Below, piece after piece: positions 11,570-37,762 of a DNA stretch of 64,000 nucleotides; position 1 is the first letter of the stretch; every line of letters starts with the position of its first letter. This stretch comes from Psilocybe cubensis (lineage: Eukaryota). A program made the translations under genes and the position numbers. The stretch is from assembly GCA_017499595.2 (NCBI GenBank), contig CM039004.1, positions 310,001-374,000 on the forward strand. The letters run 5' to 3'. The notes beneath the pieces were generated by a model. It was given only the letters and a program-made list of their open reading frames with translations. It was not told the origin of the DNA and did not search any database.

Positions 11570-13100
11570 TAGCTATCGGCTGGAAGTTCGGCTACTTGTT
11601 CCGTTTGATGGAATGGCAATCTCCGAGACATCACGCCTTGTTCTGCTGCGGCTGTCTTTTGGACCAGTGCTTTCCCACTATTGATGTTCTCTTACCTTCA
11701 TGTCCTGCTCTTACCATCATATACCAGTAACTATAGCCTGTATCTCACCTCTAAGCCTTGGGGAAGCTTCTCATAACAATTGAGTAATTCATTCTCCAAT
11801 TTCGCTGACGAGCTCCTCATCAGCGACAACCACCAAATCCTCTTCATTTGAACCAACGCAATCCTCACTCATTGGTTGCTGTTGTGGCCACACTCATGGG
11901 TAACATCGATCTAGATATCTACGAGTTGCATCCATGCGCCGTGATTTATCAAATTCCGTCGAGATAATGGAGGATTGAAATGTTCAAAATGGCCGCGTTT
12001 CCGAAGTTTATGCCTCTGGGCCACAGTGTGGCAAGAATTGATATTGATGGCACAAGGGTTCCTTTCTGTGCAGATCCCATTTTCTCTCCCCGTGGCGTTT
12101 CTGGTTTAGCCCTGCTGGTTAACACATCACTTCTGGAATCCAAGATCTACAGAGACTACTCTTATTGTGTGCGAGCTAGAATGGAATTGTGGACCTTGTT
12201 CCCTTTGTATGGAGTGGAATCGGCGCTTTTTCAACAATGTGTGGCTTGGAGACTCTATATCTGCTCTAGGACACGTCGAATGGCCCAAAGGACATGTGGC
12301 CCATTCAAGTTTTGGTTAAATTCCCGCCAAATCAAAATGGGATGTTCGCCTTGTGTATTTCTGTCTTTTGGACTTGCCCTTTCCCGCTATTGCTGTTCTT
12401 TGGCATTGATGAATATTTATATCCTCTTCATCTCGGCGGTCTTTATTCACCACACTCATGGGACCCGTCAGTCTAAATATCGGCGAGTTGGATCCCTGTT
12501 TCGTGGTTTATCAAATTCCATCGAGATATGGAGGATTGAACTGTTCAAAATGGCCGCGTCTCTGAGGTCTGTGACTCTGGGCTACGGTGCGGCAAGCATT
12601 GGTCTTGAAGACATTGACTAGGCAAGTGACGTTGCTCAAGGGTGGCCTTCTGAGCCATTGATTTCATCCCTGCTGGTTTGTACTACTCCCACTGTGTACG
12701 ATCTAGAATGGAAATGTGGCACTCGTTCCCTTCGAACTGACTGGAATCGGTGCCTTTTCAACTGAACCAGAACAATACGTGGCTATGTCGATTCTGGGAC
12801 ACGTCGAATGGCCCAATGGATGTGTGGCCCATTAGAGGTTTGGTTAAATTCCTTTTAAATCAAGGTTTGAAAACGTTCGCCTTGTGTGTTTTCATGGATC
12901 TTGCCGATAGTATACTATCTGACAGCGTATGCTCGTCCATATCCCTCCCCACATCTTTTGATATTGTCGCCCTTGATGATGCTGTAGGAGACTCTTGTAG
13001 TACATTGGACGATTCTTTTCTCAGCATCAGTAGCGTTAAGACTGAGACGGTCAGCTAACCACATTAGAGTCTAGGTTCTTACTCACCTCGCTTACCCCAT
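11570..13100 (-). pseudogene. Decayed minus-strand coding sequence with internal duplication
   Basis: Protein-like frame (EEDLVVVADEELVSEIGE*ITQLL*EASPRLRGEIQAIVTGI*W*) broken by TGA/TAA/TAG stops consistent with C>T changes. No family recognised. Confidence 0.4.
11889..12893. repeat. Diverged direct duplication, about 530-560 bp period
   Basis: Collinear blocks: CACACTCATGGG (11889/12451), TTTATCAAATTCC..GAGGATTGAA.TGTTCAAAATGGCCGCG (~11945/~12507), CTAGAATGGAA (~12176/~12703), GACACGTCGAATGGCCCAA..TTTTGGTTAAATTCC..GTTCGCCTTGTGT (~12270/~12798). Confidence 0.9.
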
Positions 13101-33015: not shown

Positions 33016-35002
33016 ATGGCCGAGTATTACCAAGATGTATCCTTTGATATCCCTTCGAGCACTTTTCCTCCTCAATCCTTTGCTCCCCTGTTTGAATCGG
33101 AACGTGAGTATCGCAGACGGCTAAACAACTCTTGATGTTGATCGACTCCTCATACAATCGTAGCACCAAAATCATTCCTTGAACAGTTTCTGGCACAGGA
33201 ATCCAGCGATAATGCATATTTACCTCCATTCCAATGTAGTTCAAGTACGGCTTATCCCAATGGCCCAGTACCAAGACGTATCCTTTGATATCCCTTCGAA
33301 CACCTTTCCTCCTCAATCCTTTGCTTCCCTGTTTGAATTGGAATGTGAGTATTGCAGACGGTTTTATGAGCAAATGCTTAATGTTGATCGACTCCTCATA
33401 CAATCGTAGCACCAAAATCATTCCTTGAACAGTTTCTGGCACAGGAATCCAGCGATAATGCATACCTACCTCAATTCCAATGTGGTTCAAGTACGCTTAT
33501 CCCAATGGCCCAGTACCAAGAAGAATCCTTCAATATTCCTTCGAACACTTTTCATCCAGGATCCTTTTCTTCCTTGTTTGAACCAGAATGTGAGTATTGC
33601 AGACGATTTTAGGGAAAAACGCTTGATGTTGATCGATTCTTCATGCCATAGTAACACCTGAATCACTCTTGGAACAGCTTGCGGCACAGGATTCGGATGA
33701 TTATACATCTGTACATCAATTTCAATGTCGTCCAAGTACGGTGGAAGCATTATCGGACTCGTATATCCCAATATCCACGTCTTTATCCGGTTTGACGGTC
33801 AAAGTGTTGGTGGGGAGCCTGTCTGTAAGTCTTTTGAGTTGAATATACTAGCAAGGGATGTCTAACTGAATACCGATTTTAGCGTTCTATCCCCCTACAT
33901 CAGGATCATCGACTAATGCCCCCACATTCCATCCCGGTGCGACTGAAGGAGAGGTACAGTTATTTGATCCATGGTACCCTCCTTATCCGTACACGGAGGA
34001 AGAGCTACTAGGGCAGAATAGCTGGCAAGGTGAGCTGATTTCACAACAGTTTTATTCTTAATTATACGCATAACTGATCACACCCGTCAGCGAGCACCCG
34101 TGCGTCCCCCCCGGCACACACTGATTCGGGGTGGGATACTTTGCCACAATACTCGTCTTGGCCAACAAACCGCGCACCGGTATTTAGGGGCGACTATCCG
34201 TCTTCCTTTATGGAAGCTTTGGCGTTCCCCGCCACAAACAAGGATGTGGGCTCGATTCCAATCCCCTCAATATCGTAAGCATGGGTTGCATATCAAAGGC
34301 GTCTGTTAATGAGGTCCAAACCAGCATCCACAATAGTCGGCCTTTCACGCCGCAGTCCTCCTTTCAAAACTCAAGTAATCAGTATGCAAACAACTACCAA
34401 ACCTGTATGTCCTGAAATACAGTAATTTTGGCCCTATTGACTCATGATTCCTGCTATTCTTTTCTTTGATGTAGTCCCAGATACTATCGGAGAAGGTTTA
34501 GGTAACACTAACATATCCACAGGCGAACAGCAAACTGTCGAGGATCAATGCTCCGGGGATCATCCTGTCGAGCACGATCACACTGAGCGAAACGCACATG
34601 GAAGGTATGTGTACCAGTTCCTTCTCCAGCAGTAGATGTTGACCAGAATTTTCAACATACAAAGCAGTGTGTTCCAGAGGTATGTGGTCATTGAAATTTT
34701 TTGTCCTTTAGAATGAAGGATTCTGACGAGACGTTTCCCATAGCAGCCTATATAGCCAGAACAATGCCTCGGAGTGGCTACCCGGGGCATATGAATCCAT
34801 CGAAGAGGAAGTACCACATACCTACGCAGGTACATGGACGGACGAGTCCATTGCACCGGAGCAGCCGGCTCCAAGCACCTCCCAGGTACAAGGCCATGTC
34901 CCCAGTTGTATGGGGGGACTTGGTGTAAGCGTTACACGTGAACGCAAGAGGAGGAAGGACAAAGGGTTCCGGTTCGTCAATCTAGCTAGCAGGCTAGATT
35001 GA
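33016..35002 (+). pseudogene. Orphan repeat-unit gene, copy 4 (most diverged; exon 1-2 module triplicated; 1-nt frameshift near 33791)
   Basis: ATGGCC(C/G)AGTA module at 33016, 33260 and 33505. GGTTTGACGGT lacks one base relative to the frame used by the other copies (could be a homopolymer assembly error). Confidence 0.65.
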
Positions 35003-36049
35003 CAATGGTGGTGGGTACACGACTCACAAGCCGAAGATAAGATCAAAAACAATACCGTAAGTGTTCTGTTCCCTCACAAGTAAACAATCTGACAAGTACC
35101 TGGGCACTCTTCACAGGTGCGAGATGTTCTTCAGCGCGAACCTGCAGCGACTGTAGGGAACGAGGGAGTCATCGAGGGTCGAGCCGGTAGACAAAGGTGA
35201 TGCGTCAGCGCTCACCTTTTTTTCTTCCGGCTTATACTACCGTGATATCGATGGTCGGGTGCGTGGGAATTCCGTGCACACCGTCCTCCATGGCTCGAAA
35301 GCGCTATAACAGGGCTCTTCGAGACAAACTTTTGTTGGATAGAGGTGTTTTGGTAGGATTGAGATCAAATTAGTACGCAATAAATAGATTTCTTTTATAA
35401 CCTGCAATCCCTTTCTTTTTGAGATATTTTCTATTTCATTAACATCATTTCACTGGCAAGTTCCAATAAGTCCCATTCGTTCCTCTTAGCAAATAAATTA
35501 CTCATTATATTAGGCACCCCCAATATCAAACTCGAAGTCCCGCTCATTCTCCTTCACATATCTGGGAACCCCAACATTTGACATTGCCTCCATCCTACCC
35601 TATTCATTATTTTTTCAAGTCATATCATCTGCAGAAAAAGAAAAAATTTAGTAGTGCTATGGTTGTATAATAGGCTGGGTAGTCTTGTTGACTGCCCCCC
35701 TATTTTATTGCTCCTGTAGCTTCCTACCAAAAGTCAGTAGATTCTGTAGATTTCTTAGTCATATATGTAGCTTTTGTAGTCTTCTGTAATTTTAATAAAT
35801 AGTATAATATTAATCTATAGGTACTACATTGCTAACTATATATTTTTATGCGCAATTTAATATTGAGTAAAAATCATTAATAGGACAGTTGGTATCATTA
35901 ATATCTTTATTAGCCATTCTACTCCGTCCAATTAGCTGACTTTGGATAGTAAGCCTCCATCCAGTCTAACAACATATTATACCTCTATCTAACTCTCTTC
36001 AACTTGTCTACTATCAGAATCTGTTAAGTAAATAACAACAGAAAAGATA

Positions 36050-36120
36050 TGGTTAGGACTAGAATCGAACCAATGACTCCCAAGTATGTTGCCAATACTT
36101 TACCACTGAGCTATATGACC
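36050..36120 (-). pseudogene. tRNA-like sequence (degenerate) inside the TIR element
   Basis: Reverse complement GGTCATA-TAGCTCAGTGGTAAAGT...GGTTCGATTC...TAACCA, 71 nt, with A-box, B-box and TTTT downstream; stems partly mismatched. Confidence 0.7.
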
Positions 36121-36305
36121 TATAAATAGATTGAGAGTTATATGTCAATATCCACTATTGAATCCATTATTTGGACTCTGTGTTGTGTTTGTTAACATTG
36201 ACATTAGTATTGTTGTTATTCCACTTATTCTATTCCATCTAATTCCATATCATAAAATCCCATAACTCAATTGACATTTACGCTATAGTCCATATTGTTT
36301 TGTAA

Positions 36306-36377
36306 AGTCTTATGGTCTACTGGTTAAGGACAGTCTATTTTTGGCTAAGGTTGACGGTTCAATCCTTGAGCAGGCCA
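36306..36377 (+). pseudogene. tRNA-like sequence (degenerate) inside the TIR element
   Basis: AGTCTTA-TGGTCTACTGGTTAAGGAC...GGTTCAATCC...CAGGCCA, 72 nt, with A-box and B-box, followed by TTTATTT. Confidence 0.65.
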
Positions 36378-37762
36378 TTTATTTCGCTCGCAGACTACAA
36401 AGTCTATAAGTATATTGTAAGTACTACTGTATGTTGCATGGGCCTTGATTATATAGTTTCCATAAATTACTGTATATTGTGAATACAATGTATTAAACCT
36501 ATGTAATGAAAATATATTAGATAATGATGTTATGTAAGGCTACTAAGTGCAAAAAAGGCTACTGGAAAGTGTGGTTACTACGGTGTCTACTGTAATATAG
36601 GTGTGTACTACTGAAAAAAACCTTTTCCGCTGATGATGTAACTTGAGAATCAGAATATACGCTTACAAACTACTCTCTGGAAACACACTCTGAGGTCGCG
36701 TGCCATACTCACTTACTCTCTGTTGCATTTCATTCTGCCTTGCGTTGCTTTCTGTGTCCTCACGGATATTTCAGAGACGAATTTAGATAGCTGCCTGTAT
36801 TATATTGGTTAGCCGGCTGACCCTCTGCGGCCTGAGAGCTCAGGCAATACTCGGACATAGTCACACAAGATTACCAAAACTGTAGGAATCACTGACAGAA
36901 GCAAGACCTGATCTTATGAGGTTGCCCTTCACGCCTCATTGATACCTCGATAATCGCACATCCATTTAAAATTGAGTTTCTTTCATGACAACGTGAGTCG
37001 AAATCGCGAAGTTTGAGTACTCTAGAGCCAAATCATCCATTTTCAGTTTCAGAATGAAGATGATATGTGATTTTACTTACTTCTAGTGAGCTCAACGCTG
37101 CAATTACGGTGAGAAATCAGACTGATACCTATCTTGATGTTCAATTTGTCAATAATATGTTTCTCCTTCACTTAGCGTTCGGGCTTTGGTAATCTCAACG
37201 AGCTCTCATGGATCCTCGGATCCATACCTATGCTTGAATAAAGAGCACGAGATACAATTGAGATAGTTTTGCACAATTCAATCCACTGCATTGTTTCAAG
37301 TTAAAGAAGCAAGTGGACTCAGCCTGAGGAAGAATTCTCTTTCAAATGACCTGGTCATTATGACAGATAAACCGCATCTCCTCCGGGACTCTCCACCCTG
37401 AAAAGTAGGGCCAGGAACGATCCAGTGGAAACACCTGAGGACGGCACAACAGCGGCACCCTCATATCCACAGGAAATGGTCCGATATTTTGCCATTTTCG
37501 GCCTAAAATCAGCTCAAAACCTAACAATCCCTTTGTTTAACTTGGGGTTAATCGAATCCCTTTCACCTCCCTTTCAACATCACCTCCCTTTTGTTTTTTT
37601 GTCCCTAGAATAAAAGCCTGACTCCATGCCACCTATCAAAATTCATTTTCTTCCGCAACTACAACAGGTACGCGTCCTCCCAGGTCAAGATGCATTTTGG
37701 TTATTCATCACTCGCTATAGCACTTACTATAATCAAGGAACTTCAAATCTGTATCGTAAGAT

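Follow-up and report, generated by a model that had tools for sequence, protein, structure and literature searches.

The stretch of DNA described here, referred to as the window, is 64,000 nucleotides long and comes from contig CM039004.1 of Psilocybe cubensis (positions 310,001 to 374,000). Between ∼18.5 and 37 kb of the window lie four tandem units, each roughly 4–5 kb in length. Three of the units are closely alike while the fourth shows 70–90% identity and loses similarity after ∼36784, thus unit 4 appears to be the edge of the array. Unit 4 is host to an element of ∼1 kb that contains two cassettes of the size of tRNA genes, one on each strand and called below the minus and the plus cassette. 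The element is probably a low-copy, recently mobile, non-autonomous class II transposon with terminal inverted repeats (TIRs), in which two decayed tRNA relics travel as passengers.

The insertion was delimited by a BLAST search of positions 35000–37600 against the window. In unit 4 the left flank ceases to match at 35604, and matching starts again with the right flank at 36643. The two flanks are directly joined in each of the sister units (3/3), at 22078, 26958 and 30691, thus unit 4 holds 1,038 extra bases, 35605–36642. An insertion of about 1030 bp missing from the three sisters had been described in an initial annotation made from the sequence alone, and this agrees with the alignment. 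No other sequence resembling the insert was found by BLAST within the 64-kb window at E<1e-3. The features at the ends of the insertion are as follows.

35605..36642, no strand: stretch private to unit 4, 1,038 bp, GC 0.324 versus 0.455 for the window
35615..35625, + strand: left arm of the palindromic flank, TCAAGTCATAT, kept in the empty-site joint and in the diverged element-free contig
35624..35625, no strand: AT, left copy of a probable 2-bp target-site duplication, from the empty-site joint
35626..36635, no strand: mobile unit, ∼1,010 bp, from reads of other copies and the empty-site joint; the cut slides by 2 nt
36636..36637, no strand: AT, right-hand counterpart in the same probable 2-bp duplication, from the empty-site joint
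36636..36646, + strand: right arm of the palindromic flank, ATGTAACTTGA, from the sister alignment, the inverted-end scan and read mapping

The boundaries of the mobile unit were examined using public sequencing reads. Sixteen public DNA runs were screened and 12 contained the stretch or part of it, nine of these with at least half of its words. Four of the 16 were mapped at 80% likeness; two of the 16 may represent the source organism, X1 among them, and X9 carries another organism label. All read-mapping figures cover the matches listed, and the bin depths quoted for run X13 are both directions summed. Reads from other copies of the element showed loose ends on the left before 35626 (298 reads, with an agreement of 0.42) and on the right behind 36635 and 36636 (158 and 126 reads, with agreements of 0.50 and 0.58), and the flanks in these loose read ends vary between copies at both ends of the element. 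Sites lacking the element were also observed. In X13, 37 reads joined 35623 directly to 36636, skipping 1,012 nt and with at least 73 letters on the shorter side of the joint; two letters (AT) at the joint fit either side. The same joint was carried by two contigs from X9. A further element-free contig, from X1, aligned with the left flank as far as 35625 (9 differences over 108 nt) and with the right flank from 36679 onward (34 differences). Taken together, the loose ends, the empty-site joint and the element-free contigs place the mobile unit at ∼35626–36635. The consensus sequences of the flanks of other copies start or end with TA, albeit mixed (agreement 0.42–0.66).

Read by eye, a 20-bp palindrome has the mobile unit exactly on its axis, with arms that agree at 8/10 positions. 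The outermost 11 nt to the left and right, which had earlier been counted as part of the TIR, are most likely pre-existing palindromic target sequence. A comparison with the sister units showed that, the transposon aside, unit 4 holds 26 nt that the sisters lack (35605–35623 plus 36636–36642), and these 26 nt form the 20-bp near-palindrome centred on the insertion point, which could be a favoured target, what is left of an older element or a product of chance.

The inverted ends of the insertion, 35615–35638 against 36623–36646, match at 20 of 24 positions and give a local score of 16. Shuffled sequences scored 7.2 ± 1.3 and none of 2,000 reached 16, nor did any of 3,000 equally spaced pairs taken from the window (6.5 ± 1.3). 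The ∼40-bp TIR of the initial annotation was thus real as to its inverted ends, but the reads assign only the inner 13 nt to the mobile unit, which is closed at both ends by the inverted repeat CATCWGCRGAAAA. Within the window this 13-nt core was found at both ends of the element and, with one mismatch, at 62500. The latter site was considered as a third TIR and rejected as a chance match, as it lies in GC-rich, coding-like DNA without subterminal repeats.

35626..35638, + strand: left TIR core, CATCTGCAGAAAA, from the inverted-end and core searches
36623..36635, − strand: right TIR core, CATCAGCGGAAAA, 11/13 identical to the left core
35651..35779, + strand: seven subterminal WGTAGY repeats, with GTAG at 35651, 35679, 35716, 35737, 35746, 35767 and 35776
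36395..36611, − strand: seven inverted subterminal repeats, with CTAC at 36395, 36424, 36540, 36559, 36578, 36587 and 36608

The subterminal GTAG/CTAC repeats noted previously are present and show a strong strand polarity, with GTAG:CTAC counts of 7:1 at the left end and 0:7 at the right end. Specifically, the left 196 nt contain seven GTAG and one CTAC while the right 258 nt contain no GTAG and seven CTAC, against window averages of 3.06 and 3.38 per kb for GTAG and CTAC, respectively. Inward clusters in opposite orientation are the usual layout of subterminal repeats bound by a transposase, and the WGTAGY repeats are presumed to be transposase-binding sites. The element encodes no protein, the longest stop-to-stop frame inside it being 64 amino acids, and BLAST and the TIR-core search found no longer relative with the same ends within the window.

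Sequencing depth was used to judge the number of copies. Among the raw reads of X13 the right flank had an average depth of ∼64 over ten bins. The four-unit tandem repeat, which serves as an internal control, averaged ∼341 over six bins or ∼5 times the flank. The element itself, positions 35683–36639, averaged ∼483 over eleven bins, ∼7.6 times the single-copy flank, and the level was even; the bins covering the cassettes had depths of ∼598 and 483 against this average. In X1, unitigs identical to the reference had depths of 49.8 (35751–36061) and 52.7 (36036–36635), versus 10.9 and 11.3 for the contigs crossing the junctions with the flanks. The ratio of unitig to flank depth, ∼4.6, indicates about 4.6 identical copies. 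The corresponding unitigs in X9 had depths of 126.5 and 121.4, and the right-flank pieces listed for this run had depths of 4.17–15.8, the longest (1,225 nt) being at 8.27. Pieces that are 84–89% identical to the reference also span both cassettes (record 5 of X1, records 14 and 16 of X9). The depths and these diverged pieces together indicate a multi-copy family, with at least two subfamilies and with the cassettes present throughout.

These results bear on several proposals of the initial annotation. That the element belongs to a DNA-transposon family is borne out by the ∼7.6-fold depth, the differing flanks and the 37 empty-site reads. A single-copy sequence with TIRs arising by chance is contradicted by the multi-copy depth and by an inverted-end score beyond all controls. 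Other copies lacking the cassettes were not seen among the matches listed, and the cassettes are part of the family and not insertions private to this copy; the depth is even and the identical unitigs span the cassettes at ∼4.6 times the flank.

Both cassettes were found at the coordinates and on the strands given by the initial annotation, as listed here with the spacer between them.

36050..36120, − strand: tRNA-derived relic 1, Rfam 20.8 bits, tRNA-Cys(GCA) by ARAGORN only at 90% thresholds
Signals of relic 1, − strand: A box from 36113 (0 mismatches), B box from 36071 (1 mismatch), T4 at 36042–36045
36121..36305, no strand: spacer between the divergent relics, 185 bp, the part up to 36148 recurring with the 5′ half of relic 1 elsewhere
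36306..36377, + strand: tRNA-derived relic 2, no Rfam match at E<=10, 49/67 identical to spliced tRNA-Pro(TGG)
Signals of relic 2, + strand: A box 36313–36323 and B box 36356–36366, 1 mismatch each, no T4 run after it

Neither cassette is a working tRNA gene. ARAGORN at its default thresholds called neither of them. The Rfam tRNA model gave the minus cassette 20.8 bits (E 0.25) against a gathering score of 29, and had no match to the plus cassette at E<=10. The minimum-energy folds contained no cloverleaf and were not better than those of shuffled sequences (z of +0.65 and −0.68); the genuine tRNA-Ile of the window gave a z of −1.68 for comparison. Lowering the ARAGORN thresholds to 90% produced three calls in 64 kb, namely the tRNA-Ile, a locus at 56788–56880 and the minus cassette, the last as a tRNA-Cys(GCA) with 4 of 7 acceptor pairs. 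The isotype of the minus cassette is unsure because the register chosen by Infernal gives a CAU anticodon and that of ARAGORN gives GCA. At thresholds of 70%, ARAGORN made 208 calls in the window, which is noise, and the plus cassette appeared only there. The organellar mode at 85% was similarly noisy with 23 calls in 1.5 kb. Neither setting was used as support. The proposed check against a tRNA model therefore had a mixed outcome, the A- and B-box matches being present while neither cassette forms a cloverleaf.

The 'CCA-like ends' proposed for the cassettes are better read as the 3′ strand of the acceptor stem plus the discriminator base, and the genuine tRNA-Ile also ends in GGCCA. The statement that neither cassette is an inverted copy of the other was upheld, their local alignment score being within the range of shuffles. 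An ancient inverted duplication of one cassette was considered on the same evidence and rejected, since the score of 17 was reached by 336 of 500 shuffles. The cassettes also lack the body and tail of a short interspersed element (SINE), as had been claimed, with no A-rich or simple-repeat tail and no tandem repeat.

The ancestry of the cassettes was examined by alignment to genuine tRNA genes of the window. The locus at 56788–56880 on the minus strand is a genuine tRNA-Pro(TGG) gene; its intron of 21 nt comes after position 37, and the gene is followed by a T5 run. This gene was missed by default ARAGORN, which allows no introns, and by Rfam at the gathering score. The plus cassette is identical to the spliced tRNA-Pro(TGG) at 49 of 67 positions with a score of 34, a value reached by none of 1,000 shuffles (10.2 ± 4.0), and aligning the two genuine tRNAs of the window, Pro and Ile, with one another gives only 18. 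The plus cassette and tRNA-Pro(TGG) also align at the TGG of the anticodon loop. Unlike the gene at 56788–56880, the relic in the plus cassette has no intron. The minus cassette is identical to tRNA-Ile at 50 of 66 positions and one of 1,000 shuffles was as good. In these two alignments, C>T or G>A changes towards the cassette account for 16 of the 17 transitions, and this bias from GC to AT fits the low GC content of the element (0.324). On the strength of these sequence comparisons both cassettes are tRNA-derived, the plus cassette being tRNA-Pro(UGG)-like and the minus cassette, by ARAGORN at relaxed thresholds, tRNA-Cys-like or otherwise unassigned. The proposal that they are tRNA 'mimics' serving as insulators, anti-silencing modules or sources of small RNAs found no support here; they look like decayed tRNA genes whose transitions run almost entirely from GC to AT.

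A 59-bp block, 36090–36148, recurs in X13 and X9 amid different sequence on both sides. It consists of the minus cassette's 5′ half together with the 28 nt upstream. Divergence sets in before 36090 in 113 reads (agreement 0.95) and behind 36148 in 146 reads (agreement 0.65). The block could represent a further subfamily, a different element or the tRNA locus that was the parent.

In two metagenome scans there were no matches to a 22-mer of the minus cassette and none to a gapped pattern running from the A box to the B box of the plus cassette.

Signals for RNA polymerase III (Pol III) were sought with the consensus sequences TRGYNNARNGG for the A box and GGTTCRANNCC for the B box, permitting at most one mismatch per box and a spacing of 30–60 nt. 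The window contains five such pairs: those of the two cassettes, that of the tRNA-Ile and two in a direct repeat at 12.3/12.8 kb. Thirty shuffles gave an average of 1.63 pairs and a maximum of 4. In each cassette the boxes have at most one mismatch and lie 42–43 nt apart, a tRNA-like spacing, so that the A and B boxes assigned to both cassettes by the initial annotation were recovered. The T-rich tails it assigned were recovered in part; a T4 run at 36042–36045 lies 5–8 nt downstream of the minus cassette, comparable to genuine tRNAs with T4–T5 within ∼20 nt, but the plus cassette is followed only by TTTATTT. No stable hairpin was found in the 90 or 150 nt downstream of either cassette (z of +0.28 to +0.98). 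A design in which a tRNA leader precedes a hairpin, as in a small-RNA precursor, was rejected since these 90/150 nt fold no better than shuffles.

The direct repeat is ∼60 nt long, with copies at 12270–12330 and 12798–12858 that are 528 nt apart. The A-box/B-box-like pair in each copy is spaced by 33 nt, too close for a tRNA, and the copy at 12270–12330 lies inside an open frame of 217 amino acids without a Pfam match.

In a variant of the minus cassette present in X13 and X9, the B-box region is preserved but the 10 nt next to it on the anticodon side are different. In X13 this variant shows up as the loose end before 36090 (113 reads, agreement 0.95). Its B box has no mismatch and that of the reference copy has one, both comparisons having been made by eye. 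The difference can be read either way, as conservation of the box or as further decay of the reference copy. Given that the A and B boxes of the cassettes are near consensus, residual binding of TFIIIC or Pol III is possible as judged from these motifs. It is doubtful that the family kept two divergent modules derived from tRNA genes (tDNA) because they bind TFIIIC/Pol III, whether as a barrier or as transcription units. A literature search, as far as its listings went, found no description of a TIR element with internal paired tRNA relics.

We favour the explanation given at the outset, a non-autonomous TIR element with tRNA relics as passengers, and infer from the features above a transposase acting in trans, a capture event and the passenger status of the relics. 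The transposase would be supplied by an autonomous relative and would bind the subterminal repeats and the ends, excise the mobile unit and reinsert it, duplicating 2 bp in the process. The family's ancestor would have acquired two tRNA genes, one of them tRNA-Pro(UGG)-like. The captured genes would then have decayed, mainly by changes from GC to AT, and lost the ability to form a tRNA, the relics riding along as long-standing passengers ever since.

Several observations weigh against parts of this explanation. The dinucleotide duplicated here is AT, yet the loose-end consensuses of other copies suggest TA, and the joint is equally compatible with an insertion between A and T without any duplication. 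A single read mapping, as far as its rows were listed and with other copies present as pieces, is the basis for the ends, the duplication and the consensus. To the left and right, the outer 11 nt also form an inverted repeat (9/11), and a longer TIR with a deletion or footprint stays conceivable because of this match. Neither an autonomous partner nor a transposase was seen in the window and metagenome scans. The tRNAs used as comparators, the Pro and Ile genes of the window, are not necessarily the parents of the relics. Finally, the A and B boxes have been kept better than the stems, as selection for TFIIIC binding would give. Retention of the boxes is also expected from ascertainment as it is the boxes that make the relics recognisable and they are common to nearly all tRNAs.

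In a different explanation, that of the initial annotation, the family retains the tDNA modules as TFIIIC/Pol III insulators against silencing or as outward promoters of small RNAs across the subterminal repeats. In its favour, the boxes have no more than one mismatch each though the stems are broken, the cassettes occur both in identical and in 84–89% identical copies and are thus long-standing in the family, the T4 run downstream of the minus cassette is placed much as in genuine tRNAs, and the variant in X13 and X9 keeps its B-box region while the neighbouring 10 nt change. We nevertheless regard retention for function as unlikely. Ascertainment and the universality of the boxes both confound their retention, neither the cassettes nor the 90–150 nt that follow them fold better than shuffled sequences, and the B box of the reference is one step further from consensus than that of the variant, which looks like ongoing decay. 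The bias from GC to AT also fits the neutral decay of a repeat. Decayed tRNA-like sequence with A and B boxes is the look of SINE heads, and the cassettes answer to this description. They could in principle be SINE heads or independent tRNA pseudogene insertions private to this copy. This is very improbable and has largely been refuted already. The depth is even, and the identical unitigs spanning both cassettes at ∼4.6 times the flank mean that other copies carry the cassettes too. Neither cassette is flanked by direct repeats or has an A-rich or simple-repeat tail, and the cassette bins (∼598, 483) are not far above the element as a whole (∼483).

The remaining two alternatives concern the extent and the origin of the insert. 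An element with longer TIRs, spanning 35615–36646 or 35605–36642, would require the empty-site reads to be a deletion or excision footprint that kept 9–11 nt of each end. The inverted match at 9 of the 11 nt outside the 13-nt core speaks for it, the combined 24 nt giving the score of 16, as does the absence of the 26 extra nucleotides from the sister units. However, the points at which reads of other copies depart from the reference are exactly 35626 and 36635/36636, with low mutual agreement, the element-free contig of X1 is far more diverged than the copies of the element are among themselves, and the same joint is present in two contigs of X9, making the longer element quite improbable. It is still harder to regard the insert as mitochondrial DNA transferred to the nucleus (NUMT) with two mitochondrial tRNA genes, an origin we consider exceedingly unlikely. 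The low GC content of 0.324 is in keeping with it, and the organellar mode of ARAGORN calls the region of the plus cassette, albeit in the same 85% setting whose 23 calls in 1.5 kb are noise. A NUMT is at odds with a multi-copy sequence having defined inverted ends, subterminal repeats and differing flanks, and with a plus cassette that resembles a nuclear tRNA-Pro(TGG) at 49 of 67 positions.

The surroundings of the element are those of fungal nuclear DNA, judging by one frame of the window that was taken as a fungal mark.

16713-18323, + strand: frame with GH43, CBM6 and fungal CBM1 (cellulose-binding) domains, intron-free, 536 amino acids, of secreted hemicellulase-type architecture

Pfam also identified a multicopper-oxidase fragment encoded in the window. 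In the tandem units, Pfam found no family in 10 frames near the insertion and none for a frame of 171 amino acids that crosses the empty site in unit 2.

For an element that is ordinary in other respects, tRNA relics are unusual passengers. On the likeliest reading, the element provides a well-delimited, recently active, non-autonomous fungal transposon that is of use in repeat annotation and for the marking of strains. It is also a clear class II case of the amplification of tRNA relics and can seed false calls of tRNA genes or pseudo-tRNAs. With tRNA structure lost, Pol III boxes near consensus and several subfamilies and species available, the relics offer a clean natural test of selection on the boxes. 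Were the boxes under selection, they would represent a novel means by which a DNA transposon handles host chromatin; the TFIIIC/Pol III reading, if true, would give such a transposon a portable chromatin barrier or Pol III units of its own.

Some resemblance exists to several known systems. In yeast, tDNA/TFIIIC sites act as chromatin barriers, and the cassettes have the A/B-box pairs required for TFIIIC binding, the likeness being a functional analogy only. Like tRNA-derived SINEs, the relics keep A and B boxes and have lost the cloverleaf, but there is no SINE body or tail and no duplication around the cassettes, and they move within a TIR element. Pack-MULE-type transduplication is the capture of gene fragments by DNA transposons, and here too host-derived sequence lies between transposon ends and has been amplified with them; however, the captured sequence consists of two whole, divergent units the size of tRNA genes and not of exon fragments.

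A DNA transposon linked to tRNA genes also recalls the Dada transposons. These are described by Kojima and Jurka (2013, PMC3706591) as inserting into small RNA genes, so that they are flanked by the halves of the gene, and as having 6–7 bp duplications, no terminal inverted repeats and a DDE transposase. In the present element the relics lie inside, no tRNA match was found in the flanks, the ends are inverted and the probable duplication is 2 bp. Membership of the Dada superfamily, as characterised there, was therefore rejected.

Among the TIR transposons, the hAT, CACTA and Mutator groups are also rich in subterminal repeats and usually make target duplications of 3–11 bp, against an apparent duplication of 2 bp (AT) here. 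With respect to Tc1/mariner-pogo, a superfamily with a TA target duplication and a DD(E/D) transposase, the flanks here are AT and not TA, and TA in other copies comes only from mixed consensuses. Classic MITEs (miniature inverted-repeat transposable elements) are shorter than this element of ∼1 kb, which has two tRNA gene relics as its centre. A close likeness is to non-autonomous class II TIR transposons, including large MITE-like deletion derivatives of the Ds type, with which the element shares inverted ends, clusters of subterminal motifs in opposite orientation, a lack of coding sequence, near-identical dispersed copies, polymorphism for presence or absence and, probably, a short target duplication.

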